This document shows positions 1 through 40,795 of a stretch of DNA of 62,024 nt, in pieces. The DNA comes from a virus. Its lineage: Duplodnaviria; Caudoviricetes. The stretch lies in IMG/VR virus record IMGVR_UViG_3300031753_000006, positions 1 through 62,024 of that record; one strand, written 5' to 3'. The stretch's first letter is position 1. Each line of letters opens with the position of its first letter. A model generated the notes under the pieces. That model worked only from the letters and a program-made list of their open reading frames with translations. It made no database searches and was not told the origin of the DNA. The position numbers and the translations under genes are program-made.

Positions 1-127
1 CTCGTCCCAGTCGTCAAACTCACTCGTCGTAGGCATCGTGAGATGCTCGCTGAGTCTGCCATGTCAGGTAAACTCCGGGCTATCGATCGTAGGTATGGCT
101 TACGTGATGAGCCGAGTGATACCTAAT
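1..127. repeat. Terminal direct repeat, left copy (probable assembly circularisation overlap)
   Basis: Bases 1-127 are identical to 61898-62024. Confidence 0.95.
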
Positions 128-734
128 CAAGGAAAGCCACTGTCGAACTGTCCCGCGTCGGGCTGTCCACCACTGCGGCTGTCGATTCGTCCGTGAGCAC
201 GATCACCGTCGGCCGCGCGTCCGTCACCAGGCGCGCCCAATCGAACGAGACTAGCTGCGACCGCTTGATGAATAGCACCTGCACCGCACTTGCGTCTGTC
301 TGTCCGGTCATACGAGCGTAGGATAGCACGGCCAGCCGCTCGTGCGCACAAAGCAACGCCGCGCGCTACCTTATGTGGATGCGCCGCGCGAGTTACTACA
401 CTTGTAGGATGGCGCTTGGCCCTCCGCTTGCGCTTGCTTACGCGCGCTCGTTCGGTCGATCGGACGTGCGATCACTTGGACGTGCATTGACCCGATCGTG
501 CCGTCATTGTTTCGGGGCCGGCGAGGGTACAGGCGGGAAGGCGGCTTGGGCGGCCACGGCTGTATAAAAAATTCAACAATTTGGAGTGATAACGTTAGAT
601 ATGACGTCGTCCGAAATTTACTACGTTTTTCTGACAATACACGCGAGCGAAGTGTGTAGTGGGCGGTGGGTGATAGGCTCCGCTCTCTCGTTGGCTCGCT
701 TGCGCTCACCTCCTCGTTCGCTCCGCAATTGTTC

Positions 735-9589: not shown

Positions 9590-11569
9590 ATGCCTGAAGA
9601 CATTGCGGCTCTAGCCGGGGAATCCTTCGATCTACCGCCTATCAAAGAACTCGCGGCTGATGCTGCCAAACCTGGGACTGTGGAGTACGCCACAATCCAG
9701 TGGGCCAACGCCAAGCTCAAGCAGGGTCAGCAGTTTGTCGAAGCCAGCATCGGGTACTCCAACGCGACTTCTGCTATCGACGCTATCTTCTCGAACGAAC
9801 GGACGTCCGGTTCATCGTACGTGCCTACTCCTAAGCCGATGTCCCGCACCCGCGCGAATTTCGTGGGTAAAGTCGCCGAGGATCTGACTGCCCAGCTCAC
9901 CGACACCCGCATCTTCTGGAAGTACTCGACTCGCAACCCCGCGTACGAGAAACACGCCACGATTGCGAACGACAACGCGAAAGATTGGTACGTCAACCGA
10001 CTGATCGACCTCCGTCTCGGTGACGTAGTCCGCTACTACACTGTCGCCGGCACTGGTATTGCCCATCTCTACTATTCTCGGCGGCTCAACGACATGATGC
10101 TCGACGCGAAGGATCCTCGCTCCGTCTTCCCGGTCGACCCAGTGTCCTATCACACGTTCCAAGACGCGCTGGGCGTGATCATCCGTGATGCGCGCACACC
10201 TCGGTGGGTCAAATCCGAGTATGGTAAGACTGTCGTGGCTGACGCAGGCGGCGTTGGCATCTTCGGGTGGATGACCCAAGCGATCAAGGGTGGATCTACC
10301 CAGAAGCATTCCGGCCCACTGTCCAAACGTTCGGGCGACGACAAGCCCATCCCCGCGGTACCCACAGTATGGGTCAACACGATGTACTTGGCCGACCCGC
10401 GAGTAAATAAGAAAGAGAACGACGTTTACATGGGGCCTTGGAAGAACGGCAAGCCCCAATCGCCCTGGTCTTATCGCGTTAAGCCTGGGGCGCCGCTCTA
10501 CCCGTTCAAACGAATGATCGTATGGACAACGGAATGCCTGCTGTATGATGGCCCGTCTCCGTACTGGCACGGCAAATTCCCGGTCATCAAGCTCACTCTC
10601 AACCCATGGCCGAATTCTTGGCTGGGCAAAGCGCCACTTTGGGACTTACTCCCGCTTCAAGAATCCATGAATGCCCTGTTACGAGTCATCGACGATCACG
10701 CGGCGCAGTTGGCTCAACCGGGTGTGGTGGCCGACCGAAACGTGTCCGGCGCGGAACTGAAGAAGTTTAACAGCCGGGCCGCCGGTTGGAACATCCGAAC
10801 GAACACTGCGTCGGGCAAGGGGATCACCGTGGTCCCACCGCCGCCGCTCGATCAATCGCTCTGGGAACATGTCAACTGGATCAAAGAAGTGATGCAGATG
10901 CTGTCGGGCACGCTGGACGCCTCACAGTTGGCTGGCCTAGCACAAGTTCCATCGGACGACACGATCGACACTCTCATGAAAGCCATGACGCCAGGTAATC
11001 GTTCGCGATCTCGGATCATGGAAGGATTCATGAAGGAATTGGCCGAGATGTATCTCTACAACATGGCCGAGTTCGATACGATCAGCAAGCGAGTCGCGAA
11101 GTTCGGTCCCACGGCCGTCACGAATGAGGATTTTGATTTCGCCGCTGGCAACTTTATACCGGACGATGTACCGGGATCCGAGCCGGGAGATATCGCGTCC
11201 ACCTATGATGCCTTAGCTGCGGACGAGCCGCGGCCGGAATTCGAGCGTGCCAAGCAGTTGTTCCAGTCATTCACGTACGAGTACACGCCGAACACCCTCC
11301 TGAACTCGGCCGCGATGCAGGACCGGATGGAAGACTTTATGCTGGCCAAGATGGGCTATCTGGATTACTTCACATTCATGCAGAACTTAGGAAAGACGCA
11401 GATTGTGCCGCCGAGCATGAAGATTCCCGATTCGATTACTGAGCGGCTAGTGTTACAGCAGCAGATGGGGATCGGGATGATTGCCAACGCGCAAGGTCGG
11501 AAGGCCACTAACCAGTCAGCGCCATCGCAAGGGCAGAATGCTGCCGGCCCAACGATCCAGACATCGTGA
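9590..11569 (+). CDS. Portal protein
   Basis: 659 aa between TerL and scaffold/capsid; PYWHGKFP...WLGK...LLPLQESMN portal-like segment; Gln-rich tail. Confidence 0.8.
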   Translation: MPEDIAALAGESFDLPPIKELAADAAKPGTVEYATIQWANAKLKQGQQFVEASIGYSNATSAIDAIFSNERTSGSSYVPTPKPMSRTRANFVGKVAEDLTAQLTDTRIFWKYSTRNPAYEKHATIANDNAKDWYVNRLIDLRLGDVVRYYTVAGTGIAHLYYSRRLNDMMLDAKDPRSVFPVDPVSYHTFQDALGVIIRDARTPRWVKSEYGKTVVADAGGVGIFGWMTQAIKGGSTQKHSGPLSKRSGDDKPIPAVPTVWVNTMYLADPRVNKKENDVYMGPWKNGKPQSPWSYRVKPGAPLYPFKRMIVWTTECLLYDGPSPYWHGKFPVIKLTLNPWPNSWLGKAPLWDLLPLQESMNALLRVIDDHAAQLAQPGVVADRNVSGAELKKFNSRAAGWNIRTNTASGKGITVVPPPPLDQSLWEHVNWIKEVMQMLSGTLDASQLAGLAQVPSDDTIDTLMKAMTPGNRSRSRIMEGFMKELAEMYLYNMAEFDTISKRVAKFGPTAVTNEDFDFAAGNFIPDDVPGSEPGDIASTYDALAADEPRPEFERAKQLFQSFTYEYTPNTLLNSAAMQDRMEDFMLAKMGYLDYFTFMQNLGKTQIVPPSMKIPDSITERLVLQQQMGIGMIANAQGRKATNQSAPSQGQNAAGPTIQTS

Positions 11570-12938: not shown

Positions 12939-13688
12939 GTGACGATCGACGAAGTGATCTCGACTCTGGAACTTGACACGGAAACCGCGGCAATTCTGCG
13001 ATCCAAGGCGAAGGCCGAGAAGGCTGCCGCCCTCAAACAACAGAAGGATCTGGACACCATTGAAGCCCAGCGCGCGGCTCTTGAAGCTGAGCTGGTGGCT
13101 GACGGCAAAAAGGGTGCTCGCAACTACAAACAGTGGTACGAGGAGAATTTCCCAAAGATTCAGAAGTTGCAGGGTGATTACGCGAAGTATGTCGAGCGGT
13201 ATGGATCGATCGATACCACCACGACTACCACGACCACGACCCCCACGACCGTCCCTGCTGGCATGACGCCCGAACAAGTGTCCAAGATGATCCAGGATAC
13301 CTACACGCCGCAGTGGTCGACCCTCCTCAAGGGCAGTGGCAAAATCCTCGAGAAGCACATTCGCGCCGGCCGTAAGAACGAACTTGACTGGGACAAATTG
13401 TCCGAATTGGCTGCCACTCACAATGGCGATCTCGTGGCCGCGTACAACGAATGGGACGCGCCCGAAGCCGACAAGGCTCGTAAGGCTGACGAGGAAAAGC
13501 GCATTAACGAGGAAGTTGAGAAGCGTGTGAAAAAGCAGCAGACCAACAGTTTCTTCCCGACGACCGAACAGGCTCCGACGGGAGTGTCGCCGCTGTCGAA
13601 AGACCGCGGTGGCGAGCCGAAGTACGACCGTAATAAGGTCATCGAGTCCGCGATTTCGGGCTTGTATGAACCGAGCACAGTTCACTAG
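12939..13688 (+). CDS. Capsid scaffolding protein candidate
   Basis: Charged coiled-coil protein with a poly-Thr linker, directly upstream of the capsid gene. Confidence 0.65.
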   Translation: MTIDEVISTLELDTETAAILRSKAKAEKAAALKQQKDLDTIEAQRAALEAELVADGKKGARNYKQWYEENFPKIQKLQGDYAKYVERYGSIDTTTTTTTTTPTTVPAGMTPEQVSKMIQDTYTPQWSTLLKGSGKILEKHIRAGRKNELDWDKLSELAATHNGDLVAAYNEWDAPEADKARKADEEKRINEEVEKRVKKQQTNSFFPTTEQAPTGVSPLSKDRGGEPKYDRNKVIESAISGLYEPSTVH

Positions 13689-13697
13689 GAGGATTCG

Positions 13698-14804
13698 ATG
13701 CCTGATACCTTAACGCAAATCGAGGTAACGACCCGCCGTTACATTGACGAACAGCCCAAGTTGCGGGACTTGGTGTTCAACAAGGACCCCTTCATGTCCT
13801 TCTTGGACGAGAACTGCCTCGATGAAGTGGAGGGCGGCTCGACCTGGAATGACAATATCGAGTATGACGTGCAGGATGGCGGATCCTACAGCAAGGGACA
13901 GGACCTGCCTGCTGACCAACGTCAGATCGAGCAGCAACTCCGCTTCGATCCCAAGTACCAAACCGTGATGATCCCCTTTTATAAGGAAGACATCAAGGTT
14001 CTGAATAACGGACCGTTGGCGGTTGTGAAGCTGGTCGAGGAGCGTGTCGACAGCGCGTATATGCAACTCGGCGCGCAGACAGCACTGCAACTGTACTTCC
14101 AGGGCCAGTCCGGCAACTACATCAAGTTGATCAACGGATTGCTCGAGGCACTGAGCGATGGCACCACGAACGGCTGGGATGGTAATACCTACGCTGTCTA
14201 CGGCACCCTCACCCGCTCGTTGTACGGCGGCCGTATGCTCGCACCCGCGCCGACCACGTTCACCAATTCCACGTTCTCCCTGCCCCAGCTTGAAACGATG
14301 TATCAGTCGGTCAACTTTGGCAGCGGCGAGTATGAGCCGAACATCATCCTGACCACGGCGGTCGGGTACGGCATCATCCGCAACAACTTTCAGACCCAGC
14401 AACGGTTCCAGAATGTGACCGTGGCAAAGGGTGGATTCCGCGGCCTCGAGTACAACGGTGCCGTCGTGTTGGCTTCCCGCTATGCCCCCGGCTCCTACCT
14501 GACCAAGTCGAACGGCACGAACGATCGTGTGGCCGTTCGGTACCTGACCTACACCACGAACGGTGCGGTCACGGCCTACCCCACCGGCTCTCTCGGAACT
14601 GGCGAGTCGATCTGGCTCATCAATGCGCGCAAGCCGATGATCAAGTACCGCATCAGCAAGCAGGCACCGTTCAATGGTTCGCTCGACGACGATGGATTCA
14701 TCCCGTCGGCCGGTAACACCAAGATCGTGGGCAAGGTCCTGCTCGCCCACAACATGACCGTACTTCCCGGCTACCACTGCTACGGGTTCGGGTTCACGCA
14801 GTAA
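13698..14804 (+). CDS. Major capsid protein
   Basis: 368 aa, AGGAGG RBS, strong codon bias; INGL and PNIILTT...QQRF...GGFRGLEYNG coat-like segments. Confidence 0.85.
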   Translation: MPDTLTQIEVTTRRYIDEQPKLRDLVFNKDPFMSFLDENCLDEVEGGSTWNDNIEYDVQDGGSYSKGQDLPADQRQIEQQLRFDPKYQTVMIPFYKEDIKVLNNGPLAVVKLVEERVDSAYMQLGAQTALQLYFQGQSGNYIKLINGLLEALSDGTTNGWDGNTYAVYGTLTRSLYGGRMLAPAPTTFTNSTFSLPQLETMYQSVNFGSGEYEPNIILTTAVGYGIIRNNFQTQQRFQNVTVAKGGFRGLEYNGAVVLASRYAPGSYLTKSNGTNDRVAVRYLTYTTNGAVTAYPTGSLGTGESIWLINARKPMIKYRISKQAPFNGSLDDDGFIPSAGNTKIVGKVLLAHNMTVLPGYHCYGFGFTQ

Positions 14805-14832
14805 CGCACGAAAGGAAAATGAGGAGGAACTA

Positions 14833-15456
14833 ATGTCTGCAATCCAAGTCTACAAGCGAATCGCGAATCCCTTCATGCCGCAAGGCACGAGCGCGAAAAC
14901 AAACTCCGCTACTCCTTTCTATGCTCCTGGCGAGATCGGCTGTGGCTTTTTCGATCCGATGACCGGTTTCTCGTGCGCTCGAGTCCGACTGGATTCCGGT
15001 GCTACATCGGCCACCGCGGTCGGCGCGGTGAAGGCTGGGCAACTAGCTTTCTGGAAAGACCGCTCGAACAATCTCGTCACAAACGATCAGGCGCAGACTG
15101 ACATCGCCATCGCTCTTGGGGCCGCTGCCCCAGCCAACGCTTGGCTGAACCGTGTAGCCGGTGTATTCCAGTTGGCCGTTTCCACGGCTGCTGGTACCAA
15201 CGACTCAACCGGTAACCCGGTCACGTATGTCTGCGATATCGTGATCGAAGGTCCGAACGTCAACGTCTTCACTAAGGCGAGTGGCGCGACGGCCGGTTGC
15301 CAAGCGGTTTGCGATACTACGGCCAGCACGGCTCAGGCTATCGCGCTGACCAACACTAACACGGCTCCGACGTCCCAAGTTCTCGGTGTGTTCCGGTCGT
15401 CCACGATCACGAACAACTTGGCTCCTATGGACGTACAGATCGGATTCTTGGTGTAA
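14833..15456 (+). CDS. Capsid decoration/cement protein candidate
   Basis: Ala/Thr-rich, GAGGAGG RBS, directly after the capsid gene. Confidence 0.55.
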   Translation: MSAIQVYKRIANPFMPQGTSAKTNSATPFYAPGEIGCGFFDPMTGFSCARVRLDSGATSATAVGAVKAGQLAFWKDRSNNLVTNDQAQTDIAIALGAAAPANAWLNRVAGVFQLAVSTAAGTNDSTGNPVTYVCDIVIEGPNVNVFTKASGATAGCQAVCDTTASTAQAIALTNTNTAPTSQVLGVFRSSTITNNLAPMDVQIGFLV

Positions 15457-15465
15457 GGAGGAAAC

Positions 15466-15723
15466 ATGGCAGTTAACACCACAGCACCACAAGAACGATT
15501 TGTCTTCGGCCAGTTGGTCGGGCGTTTTTACCCCAGCCTGACTGTTGCAAATGGCGACACTCTGGCTGTACCGCTGATCCGGATTGTGGATATCTCCGCT
15601 CAACCAACAACGGCTGTTTCTGTTGGCACGACCATCGTGCAGAGCGCAACCGGCGCCACGATCACATTTGTTACTGGCGGCTCAGTGACTTTGAACCTCT
15701 GGGTGGTTGGCCGCGAGGGCTAA
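15466..15723 (+). CDS. Small virion structural protein candidate
   Basis: AAGGAGG RBS; beta-rich; last gene before a terminator. Confidence 0.6.
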   Translation: MAVNTTAPQERFVFGQLVGRFYPSLTVANGDTLAVPLIRIVDISAQPTTAVSVGTTIVQSATGATITFVTGGSVTLNLWVVGREG

Positions 15724-15753
15724 ACACGGATATTGTCCAATTGTCGCACTCCC

Positions 15754-15791
15754 AACCGGCCCCAAGGATTACCGTCCGAGGGGCCGTTTTA
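15754..15791 (+). terminator. Intrinsic terminator after the capsid operon
   Basis: CGGCCCC...GGGGCCG stem followed by TTTT. Confidence 0.6.
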
Positions 15792-15811
15792 CTAGGTAAA
15801 CTGGTGGCTGT

Positions 15812-16573
15812 ATGGCGAAATCGTCCGCATCGAGGATCCACGAGGTGAAAGTAAGCAGTTCCGGCACAGGTGAACGGTTCCGCGGATCGAGCGATATCCC
15901 ATTGGCGCCGGAAGGAGTCGCCAAGGCCCGCGCGCTCGCTAAGGAGATCGCCAAAAAGGGTGGGTTGGATTACATCTACGCCTCCAAAATGAAGCGAACC
16001 GCGCGCACGGCTGAGATTCTATCCAATGCAACCGGTGCGAAGATCGTCTGGACCGAGGAGTTCGTGGATTGGGCGCTGGGCGGCCTCGAGGGGAAGCCTG
16101 TAAACGACGAAACGATCGCTATTCAGAACGAATTTCTGCTCGATAAGCCTGACACGAAGGTCCTTGGCCGCGGCCCACTGAGTACACGAGACGGCGAGAG
16201 CTTCAATGCCTTCCGAAAGCGCGGTACCAAGTACACTATGGACGACGTCATACCCCGCGCAGAGAAGGAACCAGACGTTCGGCGTGCTTATATCGTGAAT
16301 TTCCGATTTATCAAGCTCGTGAAGGCTTGGATCAAGGCTGGCGCGGACAAAGATGGGTCGATCGACACGGACGAGATGGTGAAATACCTCAAAAACAACG
16401 ATTCGCCGCCTGGATCGATCGCAAAGTTGGTCGTGGGCGAGGGTGACAAGCCAAAACTGCAAGAAATCGACATTTTTGACGTTCCAAAGCTCGATGGCAA
16501 CGTCTTTTTGATCCGGCACTCGACAACGGCGTGGAATAAGCCTGAGAACGACACAAAGGACGACGATGAGTAA
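15812..16573 (+). CDS. Histidine phosphatase (phosphoglycerate mutase-like), circularly permuted
   Basis: RFRGSSDIPL, YIYAS.MKRTARTA and GESF motifs; the catalytic FLIRHSTTAWN segment is at the C-terminus. Confidence 0.8.
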   Translation: MAKSSASRIHEVKVSSSGTGERFRGSSDIPLAPEGVAKARALAKEIAKKGGLDYIYASKMKRTARTAEILSNATGAKIVWTEEFVDWALGGLEGKPVNDETIAIQNEFLLDKPDTKVLGRGPLSTRDGESFNAFRKRGTKYTMDDVIPRAEKEPDVRRAYIVNFRFIKLVKAWIKAGADKDGSIDTDEMVKYLKNNDSPPGSIAKLVVGEGDKPKLQEIDIFDVPKLDGNVFLIRHSTTAWNKPENDTKDDDE

Positions 16574-17006
16574 GAGTTCGGCCAGTCGGCTCACGCAAAT
16601 ACGACCTTCGCGTGCTTCAGGTACGGGACAGGACCCTCGGAAACTGCCTAAAACGTCCGTGCTTTATGCCCACTACAGTGGAGAGGGGTATGATTGCGAC
16701 GATTGTGCGTTTTGGCTGACAGACAACCGATGTATCATCCACAGATCCGATTTAACGGTCAATGACGAGGACAAATGTGGCTTCATGATCCAGGGGAAGC
16801 CAGATACGTTCTGGGGCAAGCCGCACCTGAACCTAGATCCGAAACAGACGGGATTTGTGCGGAATTGGGGCGGTAAAGGGTGTCGCGTCTGCACCTACTA
16901 CAATGTAAGTAGAGACTGTGATAAAGTGGACAAAAACTCGGCTGGAGACGACCCCGGCGAGATCAATCCCGATGCTTGCTGTGCGTTGCAGAAGAAGGTG
17001 AAGTGA
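16566..17006 (+). CDS. Cys-rich protein with two HiPIP-like repeats
   Basis: CDDC-x8-C-x14-C and CRVC-x8-C...INPDACC. Confidence 0.55.
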   Translation: MSKSSASRLTQIRPSRASGTGQDPRKLPKTSVLYAHYSGEGYDCDDCAFWLTDNRCIIHRSDLTVNDEDKCGFMIQGKPDTFWGKPHLNLDPKQTGFVRNWGGKGCRVCTYYNVSRDCDKVDKNSAGDDPGEINPDACCALQKKVK

Positions 17007-17194
17007 TGCAAGAGAAGATCATAAAACGGTTCGGGCTTGATCCTAAAACACTGGATTACTCTCGTCCCGGCAGTACTGTGAAAACAGTCGGATACTCTCC
17101 CAGTAAACAGAAGTGGTATGGGTGGAGCCACCGTGCTATCTCTGGGTTTGGGTCTAAACAGAAGGCGCAGTCATTTGCACGATCGGTGTCATAA
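17006..17194 (+). CDS. Small hypothetical phage protein
   Basis: TGATG and TAATG couplings; GYSPSKQKWYGWSHRA. Confidence 0.65.
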   Translation: MQEKIIKRFGLDPKTLDYSRPGSTVKTVGYSPSKQKWYGWSHRAISGFGSKQKAQSFARSVS

Positions 17195-18483
17195 TGGATG
17201 ATTTCAACACACTCTCGCAACGCCTTCTGAGCCGCTGCCCCTCTGCTGGCAAGATTCTGTCCGAGCAGTTGATCAACGATGCGTGGAAGCAACTACAAGC
17301 TCGCCGTGAGTGGTCCTGGCGCCGCGGTCACAATATATTCCAGCCGCCGCCGCTGGTTACCGCTGGCACTGTCACAACGAACAAGGGTACCGGCAACCCA
17401 AACCTTATTACCGGCGTCGGCACCAACTTCACCCAATCGATGGTCGGTCAGCAGATCCGAATCAACGGTCTGAACTTCCCCTATTACGACATCACGGCCG
17501 TTTTGTCGACCACGTCCCTGCTCATCGGCTCGCCCGGTTGGACCGCGCCCGACCTCACAAACGCGGCGTATACGATCCTTCAGATCTACTACCCCGTCCC
17601 GGCCGACTTCGGCTACTTCTACACGATCATCTCAGTCAAGGATGCGTACCGGCTATGGGACACGGTGACCGAGTCCGACCTTATGCTGCTAGACCCGCAA
17701 CGCGCGCAGACCGGCCAAACGTACGGATGTGCCTTCTATGACTATCAACCGATATTTCAGGGAATCGTCAACCCGACAGTTCAGGTATCAGGAACTGGGG
17801 CCGTACCTGTGTCGGGGGCGGTTGCGGCCGGCTACTCGGGTCCGGTACCGTACACATACGTCATCACGATCTCAACCGGCGGTCTACCCGGCGGAGCGCT
17901 CCAATTTACGTGGATTCGATCAGGACAGTCAACGTCTACTGGGCCGATAGCCGTACCGGACAATAATCCGATCACTCTGGCGGACGGGTTGGGCGTTACC
18001 GTGTCCTTCCCGGTGGGCACGTACAACCTCAATGACACGTTCGTGATCAACGCCAACCCTGCGACGGCTGGCGGCAATAGCGGCCAGATGCGGTATGAGT
18101 TGTGGCCCTCTCCATCGCTGAACACACCGACCTCGCCGGTATACCAATATCCATTCATCTACATCAAGCGAGAGTACGATCTGACGATCTCGAATCCGAC
18201 ACTGCCGCCGCTGATGGCTAACCGCGGGGATCTGGTTCTTGAGATGGCACTTGCTCAGTGCGCACGGTTCCCGGGGCCAGACACAGATCACCCTAACCCC
18301 TATTTCAACCTTGCGCTGGCATTACAGCACGAGGCACGGGTGGATCGGATGATGATCGATGCCGAGAGGAATGATGAAGAAGTGGGAGTTAGCCTCGTGA
18401 CTTATAAGGAATATCCATTTTACCCTGCTCCATGGTTAGACGGCTCTTGGCAGCAATCGCACGCTCCGTTCATCAGAGGATAA
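17194..18483 (+). CDS. Head-tail adaptor-like virion protein with inserted beta domains
   Basis: Helical N-terminus (EQLINDAWKQLQARREWSW), YELWPSP, helical C-terminus. Confidence 0.55.
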   Translation: MDDFNTLSQRLLSRCPSAGKILSEQLINDAWKQLQARREWSWRRGHNIFQPPPLVTAGTVTTNKGTGNPNLITGVGTNFTQSMVGQQIRINGLNFPYYDITAVLSTTSLLIGSPGWTAPDLTNAAYTILQIYYPVPADFGYFYTIISVKDAYRLWDTVTESDLMLLDPQRAQTGQTYGCAFYDYQPIFQGIVNPTVQVSGTGAVPVSGAVAAGYSGPVPYTYVITISTGGLPGGALQFTWIRSGQSTSTGPIAVPDNNPITLADGLGVTVSFPVGTYNLNDTFVINANPATAGGNSGQMRYELWPSPSLNTPTSPVYQYPFIYIKREYDLTISNPTLPPLMANRGDLVLEMALAQCARFPGPDTDHPNPYFNLALALQHEARVDRMMIDAERNDEEVGVSLVTYKEYPFYPAPWLDGSWQQSHAPFIRG

Positions 18484-18486
18484 ACC

Positions 18487-18945
18487 ATGCGGCCATCACA
18501 AGCCTGCCTCGATCTTATCAAATCATTCGAGTCTTGCCGCCTCGTGGCGTACCTCGCGCCAGAAAGCAAACCTGGCCGCCCAGTTTGGGCCATTGGCTAC
18601 GGCCACACTTCACCGTCCGTTAAGGAGGGAGATACATGCACGCAAGCACAGGCCGATTCTTGGTTTATCGAAGATTTAAACTCTGCTGTCGATCGTATCG
18701 CCGCCCTGATCACCTACACGCCACTTACACAGGGGCAGTTCGACGCCCTCGTATCCTTCGCGTACAACACGAAATGGGAGGCGTTCAGGACCTCTACCTT
18801 GTTGAAAAAGGTGAATGCGGGCGATATGGCTGGCGCGGCCGAGGAGTTTCCCAAGTGGATCGACTCGGCCCACAAGGTAATGAAAGGACTGATCCGGCGC
18901 CGCAATGCTGAACGAGAGTTGTTCTTGTCCAAGGAGGTCGCGTGA
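18487..18945 (+). CDS. Endolysin, GH24 lysozyme
   Basis: IKSFESCRLVAY, WAIGYGHT, QFDALVSFAYN, GLIRRRNAERELF. Confidence 0.92.
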   Translation: MRPSQACLDLIKSFESCRLVAYLAPESKPGRPVWAIGYGHTSPSVKEGDTCTQAQADSWFIEDLNSAVDRIAALITYTPLTQGQFDALVSFAYNTKWEAFRTSTLLKKVNAGDMAGAAEEFPKWIDSAHKVMKGLIRRRNAERELFLSKEVA

Positions 18946-19226
18946 ACGCTGAGTATGTCCACATCGGCCTAATGGTCGGCCAGTACGTCATCATCCCGTT
19001 CACTATCTGGGCGGCGCGATCGTACAAACAATCGATCATTGATACGTTGAAGGCGCATGTCGATGCGACGATCAAGACGCATGAAGAGGGCGAAGACGGC
19101 AAGTTCACGGAATTGTCAGCGCGCATTGGCAGGATCGAGGAGTTGCTTATTCGGCGAGGGCTGCCGAAGGCGGTGGGCCGGACAGGTCGTGCTGGCGCAA
19201 AACGAACCGGCGGAACCAACGTTTAA
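18942..19226 (+). CDS. Single-TM protein, holin candidate
   Basis: N-terminal TM, coiled coil, basic tail; coupled to the endolysin gene. Confidence 0.45.
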   Translation: MNAEYVHIGLMVGQYVIIPFTIWAARSYKQSIIDTLKAHVDATIKTHEEGEDGKFTELSARIGRIEELLIRRGLPKAVGRTGRAGAKRTGGTNV

Positions 19227-21787: not shown

Positions 21788-23143
21788 GTGCCCGGTCCTC
21801 CGCCCTACACTCAGTACACTCTCACAGCTCTGACCACAGAGATCAGCAACCTCCTTGCCGATCCGACGCAGAAGTACTGGACTGTACCGGAGATCCAGTA
21901 CGCCATCCAGGAGGGCATGTATGTCTGGGGTGCGTTGACATCGTACTGGCGTGACAGTTCCCCGTTCAATCTCACTCCGAACGAGGGGATCTACGACCTG
22001 TCAGTCAAACTACCGGCCTTGCGCACAAGATCTTGGACGCTGGGCCAGATGGTCGCCGACATCCAGTACTCTATCCTCGAGGCGCCAAACGGCATTTTGG
22101 GCACTGGGATGTCCGGACAAACGACCGTGACGGCGATCCTGAATGCGATCAATCGAGCGAGAAACCGGTTCATTCTCGACTCTGTGCTGCCGTTCACAGT
22201 TACTTCAATGCCGGTTCTTTTGCCGCCATCTACTGGCGTCGTAACTTTCGCAAACAACATAGGTTACCTGCATCGGGCGGCGTGGAAAGATGGGCCTAGC
22301 GGTACGTGGACAAACCTGTGGCGGCAAGACAATTATTCGGCCGACGCTGGCCTGTACCAATGGGGCACGACCACAGGCACGCCGCGGATCTTCAGTGAGT
22401 CCAATCTGACGCCGCTGGAGTTGCAGCTCATCCCACCGCCAGCCGCTGCTGGAATCCTGCAAACGATCAGCGTCATGTCCACGATGCTTGACCTCACAAA
22501 GTCCGGCACAACGTTCAACATACCGGACGAATGGATCCACGCGATCAAGTGGGGCGCGCTGTCGGAGTTGCTATCGGTCGACTCACTGATCGCCGATCCG
22601 GCTCGTGCTCAATACGCGAACACGAGATACCAGCAGGCCGTGGACTTCGCCAAGAACTCGAAGTCGATTATTCGATTACGGTTTGGCAACACCCCACTGA
22701 TGATCGATACGTTCCAGAGCATCGACGCTGGAGTACCGATGTGGCGCAACCAACAGGGAACTCCACAGATGGCGGGCATCATGTACGATCTAGTGGCCAT
22801 CGTGCCGGGATCGCCGCAGGTTGCGTATACCGTGACTGCCGACGTCGTCCAATCAGCCCCTATCCCGTTGATCGGCACGGACGACATAGATCTCGGCCCA
22901 GAGGACATCGGCCACCTGATTGATTACGTAGTCCACATCCTCACATTCAAGTGCGGCGGTAAAGAGTTCGCGTCCACGTATAGCCGTTACAACGATTTCA
23001 TGGACGCCGTCTCGTTCCGCGGCCAGATCAACAAAGCGCGGATTCAGTACCTCAAGCCGACGATGGAACAGCCGTCGATGGAAGAGGGAGAACGGCCAGA
23101 TGTCTATCAGTTGCAGTCAACTAAGAAGGGAGGCGGCAAATGA
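21788..23143 (+). CDS. Neck/adaptor-like virion protein
   Basis: LLADP...YWTVPEIQYAIQEG adaptor-like start; IPDEWIHAIKWGAL; TATAAT-N6-GTG. Confidence 0.6.
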   Translation: MPGPPPYTQYTLTALTTEISNLLADPTQKYWTVPEIQYAIQEGMYVWGALTSYWRDSSPFNLTPNEGIYDLSVKLPALRTRSWTLGQMVADIQYSILEAPNGILGTGMSGQTTVTAILNAINRARNRFILDSVLPFTVTSMPVLLPPSTGVVTFANNIGYLHRAAWKDGPSGTWTNLWRQDNYSADAGLYQWGTTTGTPRIFSESNLTPLELQLIPPPAAAGILQTISVMSTMLDLTKSGTTFNIPDEWIHAIKWGALSELLSVDSLIADPARAQYANTRYQQAVDFAKNSKSIIRLRFGNTPLMIDTFQSIDAGVPMWRNQQGTPQMAGIMYDLVAIVPGSPQVAYTVTADVVQSAPIPLIGTDDIDLGPEDIGHLIDYVVHILTFKCGGKEFASTYSRYNDFMDAVSFRGQINKARIQYLKPTMEQPSMEEGERPDVYQLQSTKKGGGK

Positions 23144-33474: not shown

Positions 33475-34056
33475 ATGCCCTTCAATCTCTTCGCACCGTC
33501 CACTTGGTTGAGCGGATTTGGCTCATCGCCACAACCCACAGGCCTGTTCCAAACTCGCGTGACCCGCACTCCTGGCGGCGTGGCGCCAATGGATCCAGAG
33601 AAACGCGCGGTATACAACGACCGGATCGACCCACTGCAAGTCGTCGCCCAATCCAATCTACCGCCCGAACAAAAGGCCGCTCTCATGTCTGCATGGAAGT
33701 CACAAGGACCCGGTTTCATTACCGCCCAGCCTGATCAAGTACAGAACTCGCCCGTGATGCGGCACGAACAGATCCACGCTCTACAGCAACAAGCTGGCCT
33801 GAACCCGTACGCAAACGAGATCGCCGGTCTAGTGAACCCAGGTCTGGTCGATCAGATCCGCAACACTCCGATCTATCAACAGGAGTTCAAGCAGTACGGC
33901 GAGGCGCCCACGATCGCGGACGAGGGGTCGGCGTTTCAGTTGACCATGATGCCGAACGACAGTTCGACGCCAAACTTACAGGACGCCATCATGCGCCACT
34001 TGAAGACACAAGTGCAGCAGAAGCAGCTCGCGCGGCTTACTTCACCCCGCGGTTAA
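33475..34056 (+). CDS. HExxH-motif protein (zincin-like)
   Basis: MRHEQIHALQ plus downstream DEGSAF. Confidence 0.5.
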   Translation: MPFNLFAPSTWLSGFGSSPQPTGLFQTRVTRTPGGVAPMDPEKRAVYNDRIDPLQVVAQSNLPPEQKAALMSAWKSQGPGFITAQPDQVQNSPVMRHEQIHALQQQAGLNPYANEIAGLVNPGLVDQIRNTPIYQQEFKQYGEAPTIADEGSAFQLTMMPNDSSTPNLQDAIMRHLKTQVQQKQLARLTSPRG

Positions 34057-34780
34057 TCCCAAAAGTAGCCTCGCTAAACAGTTCCTCGTACTCAGGTTCG
34101 CCCGGTCGGCATCCGTACGTCTCTAGGAATTGATCTCTATTCCGATCGGCTCCTCGCTTGATACAATTAGCGTCCGCTGGTTCGGCAAACCGCAAAGTGT
34201 TTGCACCGTTGCCAATGTGGAGCATCGGAAGATCGATACAGACAGCCCTGATTCCGGCCCAGTGCATTCGCACATGATATTCGGCGTCTTCACAATAAGC
34301 AGGGTAATATGATTCATTGAATGGACCTACCTTGTCGTAACAGGACTTGCGGATGAGAAAGCCAGAGAAGTTGGGGTGTGGCCGACCGCATGGTAAAATT
34401 TCTTCTGGGAAACCGAATTGCTCCTCGTTATCCACACTCACAGTAGTTACGAACTTATGACCAGTGAATTGAAGAATGCGGTATGTCGGCGGTGACACGA
34501 TCACGTCGTTGTTCAACACCAAAGCATGCTCACCACCACGCCGCCACACATCCCTCAGAGCGAGGTTCCAGCAGGCTGCAAGAGACTTCTGTTGAGCCAA
34601 CGCCGTGTAGACCACGTTCTCGAACTTTGCGGCGGTTGCCATACCCCACTGCTGAGTGCCATCTGTGGAGGCATTATCGACGATCGTGATCTCGACTGGG
34701 GTGTCTTGTGCGAGCGCGGCTTTGAGGGTTCGGCGGGTCAGGTGGAGGCCGTTGCGGGCGACTATGATGATAGAGTTCAT
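34037..34780 (-). CDS. Glycosyltransferase family 2
   Basis: IVDNASTDGT, LNNDV, VGPFNESYYPAYCEDAEY. Confidence 0.9.
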   Translation of the reverse strand: MNSIIIVARNGLHLTRRTLKAALAQDTPVEITIVDNASTDGTQQWGMATAAKFENVVYTALAQQKSLAACWNLALRDVWRRGGEHALVLNNDVIVSPPTYRILQFTGHKFVTTVSVDNEEQFGFPEEILPCGRPHPNFSGFLIRKSCYDKVGPFNESYYPAYCEDAEYHVRMHWAGIRAVCIDLPMLHIGNGANTLRFAEPADANCIKRGADRNRDQFLETYGCRPGEPEYEELFSEATFGINRGVK

Positions 34781-34896
34781 TTGTAGGAGATCCACAGTTG
34801 GTGGCTTACGACGAAAATAATTATACCGACGGATAGCCTAAAGTCGTTTATAACCGCCGCAGCAGACAAAGACAACATCAAAGAAAGGATCTTCAT
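34777..34896 (-). CDS. Small hydrophobic protein (39 aa, not in ORF track)
   Basis: ATGA overlaps at both ends; MKILSLMLSLSAAAV. Confidence 0.45.
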   Translation of the reverse strand: MKILSLMLSLSAAAVINDFRLSVGIIIFVVSHQLWISYK

Positions 34897-35243
34897 TGCC
34901 GACGCCCGTTAGAGATAGACGTGATATCACCGAGCGATGGTTGCATGATCGTGTGGCTCATGTCCACTTCTTCGATCAGTGCACCGGCCGAATTGTGGTT
35001 CGATTGCCGTTGATCATCATCGGCAAACTTACGTAAAGCGGCAGTGGCATACCTCTCGTCTCGGTAGGTACGGATGATCGCTTCGTTCTTGTCGGCGCCC
35101 AGGCTGACGACCGTGTGCTGGCGGGCTGCAATGGTCATGCCATCGGACGCACGATAGAGCATTGCTTGCGACGGACGTTTGTTCCCCTGCCGGTCGACCG
35201 ACTCTGGGTAGGTTTCGAGAATGTGGGTGTAGGGTTTGCTCAT
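34893..35243 (-). CDS. Hypothetical protein
   Basis: ATGA-coupled ORF. Confidence 0.6.
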   Translation of the reverse strand: MSKPYTHILETYPESVDRQGNKRPSQAMLYRASDGMTIAARQHTVVSLGADKNEAIIRTYRDERYATAALRKFADDDQRQSNHNSAGALIEEVDMSHTIMQPSLGDITSISNGRRQ

Positions 35244-35458
35244 TCTGCCTCAATTTCAAAACGGTCTTGGAATTCCGAGTAAAGTTTTTGTACAGCGGCC
35301 ATTGCCTGTTCCGCAGTTAGAAAACTTCCTCCGTAAGACCAACTAGCAATTCCGTCTTCTGGTCTTATATCGATACGGTCAATGATCTCTCCGGTTTCAG
35401 TTTCGTACAATACTCGACCGCAGTAAATCGTATACCATTTCAATTTGGTTTTTTTCAT
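35240..35458 (-). CDS. Hypothetical protein
   Basis: ATGA-coupled, A/T-rich ORF. Confidence 0.6.
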   Translation of the reverse strand: MKKTKLKWYTIYCGRVLYETETGEIIDRIDIRPEDGIASWSYGGSFLTAEQAMAAVQKLYSEFQDRFEIEAE

Positions 35459-35970
35459 TTAATCGCCTCGACCCCTAAGATCCAGCGGTCCCTCGCAATG
35501 TCTGCGCCTTCGATCATCCGCCAGTTAAATCGATAGTACGATGTCCAGTCGGCGCATGTCAAGAGGAATTGCTTCAGGCTTGCGGCATCGTATCCCCACT
35601 CATGCTGATCGTCTTTCGAGTCCATGTATGCTCCGTACACATTAGTCATGTATACCTGTGTGGAGATCCTTCCCTCTTGCCACATCTTAGCCAGTTCCCA
35701 CATATCAGGTACGCACACGATCAAAGATCCGTACGGCTTGAGAATGCGGTAGCACTCTTGAATCAACGACTTCGCTTCGCCGCAACGAAAATGCTCGCAG
35801 ATATGATGTAAGACAATGTAGTCAGCCTCATTATCGTGGAACATCGGCATCGAGTCACCACTGGCCACAACGTCGGGAGACCACTTCTCCTGACAGTCGA
35901 CGTTCAGCCAGACCGTGTTACCGGTCGATTGGAATTTCCTCTGGCCGCTACCTACGTTAATGCCGAGCAC
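35455..35970 (-). CDS. Class I SAM-dependent methyltransferase
   Basis: INVGSG, WLNVD, HICEH, ECYRILKPYGSLIVCVPD. Confidence 0.85.
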   Translation of the reverse strand: MLGINVGSGQRKFQSTGNTVWLNVDCQEKWSPDVVASGDSMPMFHDNEADYIVLHHICEHFRCGEAKSLIQECYRILKPYGSLIVCVPDMWELAKMWQEGRISTQVYMTNVYGAYMDSKDDQHEWGYDAASLKQFLLTCADWTSYYRFNWRMIEGADIARDRWILGVEAIK

Positions 35971-36130
35971 GGTTATAAACCTTTTCTAGTTCATCTTGGA
36001 TCTTGTTGTATTCATACACCACCCGTTTATACCGTTCCCACAGTTCTTCGCTGATCTCCGTTTTATAACCACACGACTCGTAAAAGCCGTAATCAGGCCA
36101 ACGTTCACAACGCTCAATTTTAATCTTCAC
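35957..36130 (-). CDS. Hypothetical protein
   Basis: GTG start overlapping the upstream stop. Confidence 0.5.
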   Translation of the reverse strand: MKIKIERCERWPDYGFYESCGYKTEISEELWERYKRVVYEYNKIQDELEKVYNRARH

Positions 36131-36819
36131 TATGCCCCCTTCCACCCCATATCCCCAGTCAACATCCGGTACCAGTTCCCAATCCCCGGTGACCGGCCGT
36201 TGAAGTGGTACACACTCGGCGTATTGTGCGTCACGGCGTTCGATCCATCGGGCGATAGTTCGTGTGACGCTGCCGACGCCATAGTCTGGAACACGTTGCA
36301 ACCCGAGTCGATCGTGGTGATCAGACGGCCCTTGCGGTAGAGATACCACTTCGTCCAACAGAGTTGGTCATCGTTGCCCCAATTGTCGATGTTGTCCGAC
36401 ATGGACAACAAGGCTTCAATCACCGCGCCTCGTTCGCCCATCCAACCGCCCGAGTTGATGTATCGCCATGGAGAGCGCCGATCCACAATAGGATAGTGGG
36501 TGGAGAGGTTGACGTCTGGCCAACAATTCTTCTCGGCCGACACGAGGATCAGTGAGCCGACCTGCTGGTATTTCTCGAGGATGGACTTTGATGTACCGTT
36601 GATGAACGTGTCCGCGCCATCGGTGAACAGGACGAACGGCTCCTCTCTCGTCTCAAGGAACTTGGCGGCGTCTCGGATCTTGGCGAGTGCGTGGCCGGGA
36701 TATATGCCGGTGCCGTAAGTGGCCAGCTCGATGTCGTACAGTTCGCACGATCGGCGCAACAAACTGAGGTCGATCCTCGGTGTATCATAATCGCAAGTGA
36801 AGATGAGGAGATCGCTCAC
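36130..36819 (-). CDS. PLOD/lysyl-hydroxylase-type glycosyltransferase domain protein
   Basis: LFTDGADT, VSAEKNCWPD, YINSGGWMG, DDQ, IDSGCNVFQT, HFNG. Confidence 0.8.
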   Translation of the reverse strand: MSDLLIFTCDYDTPRIDLSLLRRSCELYDIELATYGTGIYPGHALAKIRDAAKFLETREEPFVLFTDGADTFINGTSKSILEKYQQVGSLILVSAEKNCWPDVNLSTHYPIVDRRSPWRYINSGGWMGERGAVIEALLSMSDNIDNWGNDDQLCWTKWYLYRKGRLITTIDSGCNVFQTMASAASHELSPDGSNAVTHNTPSVYHFNGRSPGIGNWYRMLTGDMGWKGA

Positions 36820-37094
36820 TGCGGCCTCTCATCTTCCGGCGTGTTAGGCGTGCCGGTATAGCACTGATCCTTCTTACAAAAGCAACACCCCTTGGCCTTA
36901 CTGCAATAGTGCGAGCACTGCGCCTCACCATTCTGCCGCTTGCATGACCGCATGTTGCACGGCGGCTCGTTCGGATGTTCAGTGTCTTTGCAGGGGGTCG
37001 GCTGACCGGCCATGCAGGTCTGCGTAGTCAACCCGCCGATTACCACGCACGCGATCAACAAAAAGACAGATAGACAGATCAACTTAGCCACCAA
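36816..37094 (-). CDS. Small secreted or anchored Cys-rich protein
   Basis: Hydrophobic N-terminus then about 10 Cys; GGAGGT RBS. Confidence 0.65.
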   Translation of the reverse strand: MVAKLICLSVFLLIACVVIGGLTTQTCMAGQPTPCKDTEHPNEPPCNMRSCKRQNGEAQCSHYCSKAKGCCFCKKDQCYTGTPNTPEDERPQ

Positions 37095-37941
37095 TCACCT
37101 CCTTGTACACCCGTTCCAAGCACTCAGCGTGGTACTGCCAAGTCAACGTCCGCGCGAACTCATTAGGTCGCCAGTCCCACGACTGCGCCGTCAACGCCCA
37201 TCTGATCAACCGTTCGAGCAGCCCCTCGTCCGTTGGATCGAACCGGACTAGGCCGGGATAGTGCTCGCCGCCCCAGTTAGCCGAGGTATCGAGCACGCGA
37301 CAGCCAGCGCACAAGGCTTCTCCGGTCGTGAGGGACATGCGCTCAGACGTTGAGGCGTTGACGAACACCTTGTGGTCGAAGTATTTCTGGGCCAGTTGTT
37401 CGCGGGTTAGGCCAGTCGCTAGCTCGAATGGTACGCCGAGACGTTGGCAGATCGCACTGACCGTCGGCACACCTTTGTCTGTATCGCCGCGGGCAGAGAC
37501 GCACAGGACACCGTATACTGCGTTTCTGACATACGACAATGGCGCCGCATGAAACATTTCGTCAGTGCCATTAGGGATCACCCGAACGTTCCTACCATGA
37601 AGGATCGGCAACAATCCAGACTCTGTGTGGCTAAACGGTAGGATAAACCGCGCGTTCGATAACACGGCTCTAGCATACGACCCACTGAACCCATAGTAGA
37701 TCGGCGTCACCACGTACGGCAATCCGACTGCGAGCACGGCTTCGTAATTCCCGTTCGACCAATCGAAGTCACAGTGATAGATGTGGGCTAGATCGAAGTT
37801 GCCCGTCGCCATCGCCGTTCGATCCCAGCCCGTCTCGACGCACGTATGGCCGCGCTTACGAAGGGCTTCCATTGTGGCGTCGAGCGCGATCAGGTCGCCG
37901 CCTGGGTGGACTCGGCCGCGGTTAAGAAAGGCTATGCGCAC
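37084..37941 (-). CDS. GT-B fold glycosyltransferase (GT4-like)
   Basis: GGD...ALRKRGH, VIPNGTD, VFVNASTSE...EALCAGC; GTG start with GGAGG RBS. Confidence 0.8.
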   Translation of the reverse strand: MRIAFLNRGRVHPGGDLIALDATMEALRKRGHTCVETGWDRTAMATGNFDLAHIYHCDFDWSNGNYEAVLAVGLPYVVTPIYYGFSGSYARAVLSNARFILPFSHTESGLLPILHGRNVRVIPNGTDEMFHAAPLSYVRNAVYGVLCVSARGDTDKGVPTVSAICQRLGVPFELATGLTREQLAQKYFDHKVFVNASTSERMSLTTGEALCAGCRVLDTSANWGGEHYPGLVRFDPTDEGLLERLIRWALTAQSWDWRPNEFARTLTWQYHAECLERVYKEVIGG

Positions 37942-39005
37942 GTAGGCCTCCATGACTTGACGGCATTGACTACAGATATCTGTTCGATTGAATTCATCCT
38001 TGTATAGAATGGCAATCGCAGTAATTGATTCGCCGCACGCACGGTGTTGGGAAAGTCCTTGTCGTCCAATCCAAATCGACGATGAAGTGGTTGGTAGTGG
38101 ATCACTGCTTGAATACCGCGGTCGGCGAGGTGTTTGATCAGGCTCGTGCGCGCCTCTGGAGTGGGGGCAACCAGGTAATACATATGGAATGACTGTTCGC
38201 AGGCAGGTGGTATACACGGGCGCACAAATCCAAAGTTGCTTGCCCACGCTGCTAACTCGACGTCATATCCGTACCACAGCCTAGCCCGCTTATTTTGGAT
38301 CACATCGGCGCATTCCAGTTGTCCCAACAACATCGCGGCCAACACATCAGACGGTGAGTACGACGATCCATACCCCACCCAAGTGTACTTATCCACGTCT
38401 CCACGATTCATCGCCTGCCGGTTCGTTCCCTTGTCGCGGATGATGTACGCACGTTCGATCAAGGACGGGTCGTTGATGATCAGTGCGCCACCCTCACCCA
38501 TGTTAAAGTTCTTCGTGTTATGGAACGATAGAGCGGCCAGCCGACCGAATGTACCGAGATACTTGCCATTGTACTTGGCGAGGAAGGCGTGGGCACAATC
38601 TTCAATTACATTATCGCTATTCAGTGGCGCAGCTACGCCAGCGTAGTGAAGGACCACGTCAGTCTGCACTTCTGCGTTTTGCGTTTGTGAATCCACATCC
38701 ACGAAGAACGTGTTGTCAGTTATGTTAGCAATTGACGGAAATCCATAAGACGGCAATGTCATTCCAGGCCGGTCATACAGTTTTGCCGCCATCTCCAATG
38801 CCGCCGTGCCAGACGTCGTCAACAACACTTTTGGCACACCCAACTCCTGTTCGATCCACCGCTCGCACTCTCGAGTGTACGGCCCGTCGCCACCAGGATC
38901 GGACATCGCCTTGGCTGCTAGTTCCCTCGAACGTTCGGGGATCCAAGCGCGGTTGAATGGTATTGAGTACTGTGGTTGTGGTTGTGGTTGTATCACTTCG
39001 GCCAC
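37932..39005 (-). CDS. rffA: DegT/DnrJ-family sugar aminotransferase, WecE/RffA-like
   Basis: LLTTSGTAALEMAA, IEDCAH, SFHNTKN, GEGG, RDKGTNR, VDKYTW. Confidence 0.88.
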   Translation of the reverse strand: MAEVIQPQPQPQYSIPFNRAWIPERSRELAAKAMSDPGGDGPYTRECERWIEQELGVPKVLLTTSGTAALEMAAKLYDRPGMTLPSYGFPSIANITDNTFFVDVDSQTQNAEVQTDVVLHYAGVAAPLNSDNVIEDCAHAFLAKYNGKYLGTFGRLAALSFHNTKNFNMGEGGALIINDPSLIERAYIIRDKGTNRQAMNRGDVDKYTWVGYGSSYSPSDVLAAMLLGQLECADVIQNKRARLWYGYDVELAAWASNFGFVRPCIPPACEQSFHMYYLVAPTPEARTSLIKHLADRGIQAVIHYQPLHRRFGLDDKDFPNTVRAANQLLRLPFYTRMNSIEQISVVNAVKSWRPTCA

Positions 39006-40244: not shown

Positions 40245-40795
40245 GGTTTCCTCCGAATCGCTAGTGTATTATACACTCCCAGATCCTCCCAGCCCTTGGT
40301 GTACTCATCCAGCACAGTCACGATATCTGGATAGGCTGGATTGCCGTAGTCATGTGCGCACACGACACCACCCGAACGGAGCATTGGCAGGTATAGCAAA
40401 CAGTCGTTCGTAATGCCCGCGTGAGTATGGTCGCCGTCGATGTGTAGCAAACTAATAGGACCGCACACGTACTGGACCGCCATTGCCGACCTCATTTTAT
40501 ACACGCGCCAATTCCAGTAATACTGGAATTTGTCTTCGATATTTCGTTTGAATGCTGGGATTGCACCGCCTTCCATCCACACGAACGGATCAATCAACGT
40601 AACATGAGATCCTTGATTAACCGCGCACTGAAGTAAAATCGACGACGACTTACCAGCCCAACATCCGATCTCAACTTTATCTCCACAATTGGAGTTAGCC
40701 TGTTCGAATAGCGCCCGAGATTCCTCCTCGCCGAACCACCCATCGATCGTACTAGTGTACTTCCACATGTCCTCAAAGGTCAGCCGTCCGCTCAT
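40241..40795 (-). CDS. Class I SAM methyltransferase (Methyltransf_24-like)
   Basis: VEIGCWAGKSS, LLHIDGDH, GGVVCAHDY. Confidence 0.88.
   Translation of the reverse strand: MSGRLTFEDMWKYTSTIDGWFGEEESRALFEQANSNCGDKVEIGCWAGKSSSILLQCAVNQGSHVTLIDPFVWMEGGAIPAFKRNIEDKFQYYWNWRVYKMRSAMAVQYVCGPISLLHIDGDHTHAGITNDCLLYLPMLRSGGVVCAHDYGNPAYPDIVTVLDEYTKGWEDLGVYNTLAIRRKP

Follow-up and report, generated by a model that had tools for sequence, protein, structure and literature searches.

Can a histidine phosphatase hold its catalytic strand at the far end of its chain, and what might a phage do with an enzyme built in this way? The question is raised by a gene at positions 15812–16573 of the Caudoviricetes virus record IMGVR_UViG_3300031753_000006. 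The window analyzed here is that complete record, 62,024 bases with direct terminal repeats, in which the gene occurs once; the features described below are on the plus strand unless otherwise stated. The open reading frame (ORF) list and the Pfam family His_Phos_1 define a product of 253 residues followed by a stop codon. In the textbook histidine phosphatase fold, strand 1 and the RHG motif that carries the nucleophile always come first, to our knowledge. In this protein the equivalent motif, VFLIRHSTTAWN, occupies residues 231–242 (16502–16537), 11 residues ahead of the stop and with only the tail KPENDTKDDDE after it, and the segment that would normally follow it, ERFRGSSDIPL..EG..A..YIYASKMKRTARTA, begins at residue 21, near the N-terminus. 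The original prediction, made from the sequence alone, had described both placements and proposed a natural circular permutant whose new termini lie in the loop of the active site that joins RHGxTxxN to RxxG. The alignment to PhoE, the relatives of canonical order, a hidden Markov model (HMM) test on tail-trimmed sequences and the modeled fold all uphold that proposal.

The affiliation of the protein to branch 1 of the histidine phosphatases is clear from its Pfam match, which at 72.1 bits lies above the His_Phos_1 cut-off of 21.7 (PF00300; E = 6.5e-20). This match runs from residue 21 to residue 141 and covers profile positions 15–129 of 194; nothing in the N-terminal part of the protein corresponds to the first 14 profile positions, those of strand 1 and RHG. 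Of the 485 candidates given by a word-indexed search, 12 proteins reached E ≤ 0.001, and the 11 full-length sequences were aligned, a tandem protein of 434 residues (P0012) being left out. E21, F23–S27, R62, E93, G94, the GESFN block, R235, H236, T239 and N242 are invariant in this alignment. When its profile was compared with the sequences of the PDB, PhoE (1EBB, 1H2E) was matched in two pieces and in swapped order: profile positions 231–245 align to PhoE residues 4–18, LYLTRHGETKWNVER, and positions 20–175 to PhoE residues 17–162. Since the two pieces are contiguous in PhoE but exchanged in the phage protein, the arrangement corresponds to a circular permutation. The same exchange is seen against four relatives of canonical order (P0147, P0148, P0152 and P0153), whose residues 11–33 match residues 224–246 of the query and whose residues 36–192 match residues 21–190. 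Strand 1 and RHG, which open the domain in the canonical order, are found here at residues 231–242 of 253. The permutation alters the topology of the protein, not its homology, and the alignments locate the new termini at the active-site rim, past the Asn of RHGxTxWN and ahead of the RxxG loop.

The gene can accordingly be divided into five successive parts. A leader of 20 residues, MAKSSASRIHEVKVSSSGTG (15812–15871), is disordered in the structural model and shared with the product of the next gene. It is followed by the fold core (residues 21–219, 15872–16468), delimited by the PhoE alignment and the VIA-align superposition, which extends from the canonical RxxG loop to the last beta-hairpin. 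Residues 220–230 (16469–16501) form a linker between strands 215–219 and 231–235, through which the former C-terminal hairpin is connected to the former N-terminal strand. Then come the relocated strand 1 and catalytic motif, identified by the PhoE alignment and a DSSP assignment and including Arg235, His236, Thr239 and Asn242, and finally the acidic tail KPENDTKDDDE (16538–16570), which is disordered in the model (residues 247–253). Within the alignment of 11 sequences, acidic tails resembling this one are restricted to P0002–P0004. Many stand-alone permuted relatives end in Gly/Gln/Ala-Ser a few residues past the motif (GPGS, SSQS, GAQS, GNAS), where the clade of the window's protein ends in DDDE.

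One might alternatively read the C-terminal IRHS as the second-His motif (VxHG) of an enzyme truncated at its N-terminus and lacking the RHG strand, in which case no permutation would be involved. A strand followed by a His does resemble the second-His motif at first sight, and Pfam taken alone gives only profile positions 15–129. Yet, a separate second-His motif exists at residues 158–165: it reads VTHxR in 115 of 139 family members and aligns to IVTHG of PhoE. (These counts come from a set of 138 permuted domains, which becomes a set of 139 rows when P0012, of canonical order, is taken in.) Moreover, the C-terminal segment falls on PhoE residues 4–18 and includes the Thr (136/138) and the Asn (118/138) of RHGxTxWN. 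This explanation is therefore considered very improbable.

The swapped order was also evaluated with an HMM built from eight canonical-order relatives. The native protein is matched in two parts, with 125.1 bits on HMM positions 35–212 and 8.3 bits on HMM positions 13–40 (residues 223–250). All 25 tail-trimmed, re-ordered versions align as a single domain over HMM positions 15–211 and score between 130.1 and 146.8 bits. The controls stay at 123.5–125.6 bits for five versions with a shuffled C-terminal piece and at 123.8 bits for the core alone.

The structure predicted by AlphaFold2 (AF2) from the 11-sequence alignment has a mean predicted local distance difference test score (pLDDT) of 83.7 and a predicted template modeling score of 0.82. 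Residues 1–18 and 247–253 have pLDDT values under 50 and are disordered. DSSP assigns a strand at residues 231–235, and the block 231–240 has a pLDDT of 92; further strands are found at 54–57, 77–80, 158–162, 203–207 and 215–219. Foldseek returned 221 PDB matches at E ≤ 0.001, headed by TIGAR and phosphoglycerate mutases. The best structural neighbors according to VIA-align are PspA, PhoE, CobC and a riboflavin-pathway HFP; the Z score is 17.1 for the phosphoserine phosphatase 4ij6_B, with a root-mean-square deviation (rmsd) of 2.9 over 180 residues (model 19..223 on 16..199), and 16.2 for PhoE (1h2e). The model thus has the alpha/beta/alpha fold of the PhoE/dPGM type, and the structure prediction proposed as a check on the permutation gave a confident histidine phosphatase fold. 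In a fold search of BFVD, the best match was a histidine phosphatase of a Tenacibaculum phage (TM score 0.54), and no end-to-end match was found. In the proposed architecture, the chain would start in the loop that follows the catalytic motif (ERFRGSSDIPL...) and run through the alpha/beta/alpha fold to the last hairpin. From there the 11-residue linker would lead back to the former strand 1 and its RHxxTxWN motif, and the last ordered segment of the protein would supply the nucleophile His236 together with Arg235.

Is the swapped order a property of this record or of a family? An exhaustive search of representatives clustered at 50% identity yielded 1050 proteins at E ≤ 0.001, 256 of them at E ≤ 1e-10, and the best 150 of the 1050 were classified. 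The whole permuted domain lies in one stretch in 129 of these 150, two more (P0084 and P0150) have the C-terminal strand after an insertion, eight have the canonical order and 11 are fragments or unclear. Examined by eye, five of the latter 11 end in a C-terminal RH motif and two (P0128 and P0134) begin with RHG. The homologues sought as a check on the prediction are numerous, and their varied origins include lgn, ena, jgi and ncbi. The 129 permuted representatives comprise 65 proteins of up to 350 residues, 29 of 351–999 residues and 35 of at least 1000 residues, the longest having 5366. None of the full permuted matches has an RHG upstream of the domain.

These data bear on the suspicion that the order is an artifact of assembly or gene calling, produced by a chimeric join or by a second phosphatase gene, truncated after its start, that is fused to the first one. 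Two observations could be invoked in its favor: a tandem duplicate of canonical domains such as P0012 mimics the permuted order across its middle, and the sole identical contig, 151 bases from one soil DNA run with no RNA match listed, spans 16555–16705 and so falls outside the RH strand. Nevertheless, the 65 stand-alone representatives, of varied sources, have the same order and end some 5–30 residues past the motif, and the order is also found in independent metagenome contigs (L007–L018). In the window itself, an in-frame TAA read directly from the sequence (15797–15799), immediately 5' of the ATG, rules out a longer N-terminus with a hidden RHG strand; a GGTGG at 15803–15807, five bases ahead of the ATG, is a candidate ribosome-binding site. 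Because the order is common to 129 of the 150 representatives and His236 is invariant, the arrangement is not an assembly error, and we give the artifact hardly any probability at all.

The origin of the permuted order was explored with a FastTree phylogeny of the core, comprising 138 permuted and eight canonical rows and using the two halves of P0012 as the outgroup. The eight canonical relatives lie on one side of a branch with a support of 89. Two changes of the permuted label are needed on this tree, and its well-supported branches force only one. A single origin of the permutation is possible on this topology, which supports neither answer. P0012 (434 residues) consists of two histidine phosphatase domains of canonical order in tandem, and the family profile aligns across its middle (profile positions 14–242 on residues 4–237); by mimicking the permuted order there, it illustrates the classical duplication route to a permutation. 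A further variation is seen in P0084 (1989 residues), whose domain is split between residues 646–831 and 1063–1089, leaving the catalytic C-terminal strand about 230 residues away from the rest; another segment appears to have been inserted in the permutation linker.

The residues of the active site differ greatly in how strictly they are kept. The nucleophile His236 is present in 138 of the 138 permuted domains and Arg235 in 124; both align to the RHG of PhoE, the Gly of which is a Ser here. Arg62 (15995–15997), the second phosphate-binding Arg, in the motif RTARTA, is conserved in 139/139 rows of the family alignment, and Glu93 (16088–16090), in the LEG motif, is almost invariant (136/139). 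Column 230 of the linker is a Gly in 128 of 138 domains and an Asn in the window's protein. By contrast with the first His, the second catalytic one (VxHG) is absent: Asn163 (16298–16300), within IVNFR, aligns with the His of IVTHG in PhoE and of VTHxR in the family. The replacement of this His in YIVNFR (residues 160–165) had been anticipated and holds. The column contains His in 115 rows, Asn in 15 and Ser in nine of 139. Asp86 (16067–16069) occupies, in the PhoE alignment, the column of the Glu of LRE, which we take to be the canonical proton donor; this column is also variable, with Pro in 80 rows, Ser in 26 and Asp in 15 of 139, and Glu93 may act as the acid in place of the LRE-position residue. 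Among the 138 domains, Asp86 accompanies Asn163 in 12 of the 15 rows with Asn, and an Asp occurs together with the His in three of 114. The Asn/Asp state is also found in a protein of 4179 residues, P0032. In the alignment, this covariation suggests a coupled remodeling of the active site, and the Asn/Asp state looks like a maintained alternative rather than decay.

One possibility is that the protein is a weakened or dead pseudo-phosphatase, which would have kept the fold and the phosphate pocket and would bind a phosphorylated ligand or serve as a structural component of the virion. The Asn at the second catalytic His and the variability of the proton-donor column would agree with such a loss, as would a sub-clade devoid of Arg235 and Asn242. 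Yet, the conservation of His236, Arg62 and Glu93 points to selection on catalysis, and Asn163 is recurrent (15/138, P0032 included) and paired with Asp86 in most cases, as expected of a remodeled site and not of a decayed one. A pseudo-phosphatase seems decidedly unlikely in view of this evidence. The sub-clade just mentioned (P0114, P0118, P0126, P0127, P0138, P0141 and P0155) is permuted and has ILHSLTDDD in place of IRHGxTxWN, with the Arg and the Asn lost and the His kept. Five of its seven members are fused to at least one of a 2H, an XkdF protease, an ADP-ribosyltransferase or a Fic domain; P0126 has only His_Phos_1. The window's protein would still be a phosphomonoesterase, acting through a phospho-His236 intermediate.

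A further reading of part of the sequence was considered and rejected. Residues 171–194 (bases 16322–16393) can be read as an EF-hand, the loop of which would be DKDGSIDTDEM, but EF-hand_1 stays at 15 bits, below its cut-off of 25.4. Asp185 of this loop is kept in 102 of 138 relatives, and these residues form the helix-loop-helix that ordinarily follows the His in this family.

The gene that follows encodes a Cys-rich protein of 146 residues (16566–17006), the start of which overlaps the stop of the phosphatase gene by eight bases; the overlap suggests a coupled translation of both proteins. No Pfam, PHROG or NCBIfam family matched this neighbor. It has eight invariant Cys among its homologues, and its AF2 model has a pLDDT of 36, too low to be used. 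Its N-terminus, MSKSSASRL..SGTGQ, resembles that of the phosphatase: MAKSSASRI (residues 1–9) and MSKSSASRL are identical at seven of nine residues and at 13 of 27 bases, and the residues shared after the Met use a different codon in every case. A second short match, SGTG, follows the leader in both proteins (15812–15871 and 16566–16631). When the ORF N-termini of the window are compared two by two (61,425 pairs), this pair is the only one with at least six identities out of eight. The leader is found in five of the five close homologues of the Cys-rich protein, and a distant homologue on contig L004 starts right after the position of the leader. On the side of the phosphatase, it is kept in P0002–4, P0008, P0009, P0014 and the syntenic contig L010, and it is absent from the relatives that begin with (M)ERFRGSS. 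Judging from its distribution and codon usage, the leader resembles a portable tag of the N-terminus that is selected as a peptide. Its favored interpretation is that of a capsid-loading signal, a tentative reading that we hold to be possible rather than probable. A complex prediction with leader residues 1–40, the scaffold-like protein and the major head protein gave a score of 0.00, which provides no verdict either way. The suggestion that the permutation had freed the N-terminus for a leader peptide is thus correct in part: the N-terminus is free, but the leader is lineage-specific, many relatives starting with (M)ERFRGSS or lying within giant proteins.

What the phage may do with this enzyme has to be approached through its genomic surroundings and its relatives. 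The gene sits in the head module, between the major head protein and the endolysin. Upstream lie the portal protein (9590–11569; phrog_156, 9.1e-11, and SU10_portal, 5.2e-06), a charged helical protein without family match that its position and composition make a candidate scaffold (12939–13688), and the major head protein (13698–14804; phrog_9953, 1.9e-14), which is separated from the phosphatase by two small unknown proteins. Downstream of the Cys-rich protein, an unknown protein of 429 residues precedes the endolysin (18487–18945; phrog_7, 1.2e-54, and Phage_lysozyme, 9.2e-40), and an SU10-like adaptor is found at 21788–23143. A blastn search with 13000–19000 had a stretch of 127 bases in the endolysin gene as its sole match. 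Searches for related loci found none in genome contigs, and a search of viral contigs with the alignment of the neighbor returned only the L004 contig again.

Fifty-seven multi-domain carriers of the permuted domain were scanned with Pfam, and in 57 of 57 the His_Phos_1 match begins at profile position 7–22. Another Pfam domain is present in 19 of them: 2H phosphoesterase in eight carriers (with a weak Acb1 match in P0085), ddrB-ParB in six, an XkdF-type head protease in four, SLT lytic transglycosylase in three, SNF2 in two, and a Strawberry-notch (Sno) helicase, an ADP-ribosyltransferase (ART), Fic and a methyltransferase in one each. The N-terminal SLT and C-terminal head protease domains point to a residence of the giant carriers in the capsid. 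From the location of the gene and the giant multi-domain relatives of the domain, we infer by analogy that the stand-alone phosphatase would be a virion-associated or early-acting phage effector. The recurrence of the 2H partner allows the speculation that terminal phosphates, for example those of nucleotides or of RNA ends, are the substrates; a Pfam scan of the window detected no 2H, kinase or RNA ligase gene.

In a more prosaic scenario, the protein would be an ordinary cytoplasmic auxiliary metabolic enzyme, similar to CobC, PspA or GpmB, that lies in the structural module by chance and has no link to the virion or to defense. That its best structural neighbors are small metabolic phosphatases and that it has a single domain would agree with this scenario. 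Nevertheless, no NCBIfam model reached its cut-off, the best equivalog scoring 44.8 bits against 326, and the metabolic scenario also leaves aside the fusions to SLT, head-protease, ParB, SNF2, 2H, ART and Fic domains in 19 of the 57 carriers and the leader held in common with an unrelated neighbor. We consider it improbable, with a small chance of being right.

The explanation that best accounts for the observations as a whole is that of a fixed permutant of a branch 1 phosphatase similar to PhoE, CobC and PspA, acting as a phosphomonoesterase through phospho-His236 and serving as a phage effector, which we regard as probable. Several points weigh against it. Matched alone against Pfam at E ≤ 10, the C-terminal 29 residues found no family, because so short a piece cannot score. 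Untrimmed rotations at every third residue gave 114–135 bits against 135.2 bits for the native sequence, hence no gain; this is explained by the fact that HMMER sums pieces that are out of order and by the 31 tail residues that fall between the motifs. Re-ordering improves the HMM match only once the disordered tails are removed, and the check proposed with the permutation gave a divided answer: the plain rotation did not raise the score, and the trimmed versions exceeded the best native domain (130.1–146.8 against 125.1 bits). That the relocated strand 231–235 docks in its original place is a prediction drawn from its DSSP assignment, its pLDDT and the conservation of its sequence. As regards the activity, the Asn163 found in place of a catalytic His and the Pro found at the acid position in 80 of 139 rows suggest that it may be low or different. 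As for the role of effector, 38 of the 57 multi-domain carriers have only His_Phos_1, the packaging and delivery of the stand-alone protein are reached by inference only, and tblastn searches with P0001 and P0045 found no match in 50,697 GenBank phage records. A more specific version of the effector role can be imagined, in which the protein would be a virion-delivered counter-defense enzyme of a large group of uncultured phages that, alone or with a 2H enzyme, dephosphorylates immune nucleotides or damaged RNA ends at entry, with MAKSSASR as its capsid-loading tag. Such a detailed scenario is, in our opinion, unlikely.

Other parts of the window, all on the minus strand, contain genes of potential interest. 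A run of sugar-modifying genes (34040–43712) encodes four GT2-type glycosyltransferases and one of the GT4 type, a PLOD-type glycosyltransferase, a DegT-family aminotransferase, a formyltransferase and methyltransferases, which may modify DNA or a surface glycan. At 45908–48234, beside a family A DNA polymerase, a gene similar to nucleoside 2-deoxyribosyltransferases adjoins a fusion of a uracil-DNA-glycosylase-superfamily domain with a 3'-5' exonuclease, an association that hints at unusual base chemistry. Finally, a pentapeptide-repeat protein (58667–59500; 210 bits) could be a DNA mimic.

Circular permutation is already known in other enzyme families. The present case indicates that the catalytic strand of the histidine phosphatase fold can come from the C-terminal end, and, being present in no fewer than 129 clusters at 50% identity, this design is stable in nature rather than an isolated case. 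These phosphatases provide a ready case for studying folding and the assembly of an active site in a permuted enzyme. They also matter for annotation, as Pfam and NCBI label them as ordinary or seemingly truncated histidine phosphatases; the closest public relative is named 'histidine phosphatase family protein' at NCBI, and the sole PHROG match of the window's protein is a family of unknown function. A full-text search of the literature, which covered few subscription journals, found no account of a circularly permuted histidine phosphatase or phosphoglycerate mutase. The permuted form is a large family of uncultured-phage proteins that was not found described in the literature searched. It extends the domain repertoire of giant multi-domain phage proteins by a phosphatase module, and its frequent 2H partner offers a testable lead on substrates. 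The leader on two unrelated neighbors may be a packaging signal and, if so, could be reused.

Comparison with known systems helps to situate the protein. Its closest known counterparts are PhoE (YhfR of Geobacillus stearothermophilus, 1EBB/1H2E), PspA (4IJ5/4IJ6) and CobC (6NRU, 6E4B). The phage protein shares with them the alpha/beta/alpha fold, with Z scores of 16–17 and an rmsd of about 3 over 178–181 residues, and the motifs RHGxTxWN, RxxG..PLT, SxxxRAxxTA, GxxEG and GESF. Unlike them, it has strand 1 and RHG after the last hairpin, a GRGPxST region (112–127) longer by seven residues, Asn163 at the second His, Asp86 at the Glu of LRE and a disordered leader of 20 residues. The closest sequences of canonical order among the best 150 of the 1050 are phage and metagenome relatives (P0147, P0148, P0152, P0153, P0154, P0143, P0145 and P0158; E about 1e-14 to 1e-15). 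They possess the family-specific AWxxxG..D.S(I/V)D..M region, as the permuted proteins do, but begin with strand 1 and RHG.

Phages are known to have other enzymes for the phosphate ends of RNA or for immune nucleotides, such as the T4 polynucleotide kinase/phosphatase and 2H phosphoesterases like Acb1. The processing of phosphate ends would be a point in common, and 2H accompanies the permuted phosphatase in eight of the 57 carriers; however, the folds of these enzymes are HAD and 2H, which are unrelated to that of histidine phosphatases. The giant carriers recall the polyvalent proteins that Iyer et al. reportedly defined in 2017, which are said to draw on a repertoire of SLT, SNF2, ddrB-ParB, 2H, methyltransferase, ADP-ribosyltransferase and Fic domains and were proposed to be delivered with the invading DNA. 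The carriers of the permuted domain combine these same seven domain types. The window's protein has a single domain, in contrast to the two or more effector domains by which polyvalent proteins are defined, which its relatives have in 19 of 57 cases. The main text of the polyvalent-protein paper (PMC5512222) does not contain the terms 'phosphatase', 'phosphoglycerate mutase' or 'permut', and the phosphatase module appears not to be listed there. By its sequence and its predicted fold, the phage protein is a histidine phosphatase of branch 1, and it departs from the known members in the order of its chain and, in the lineage of the window, in its second His.

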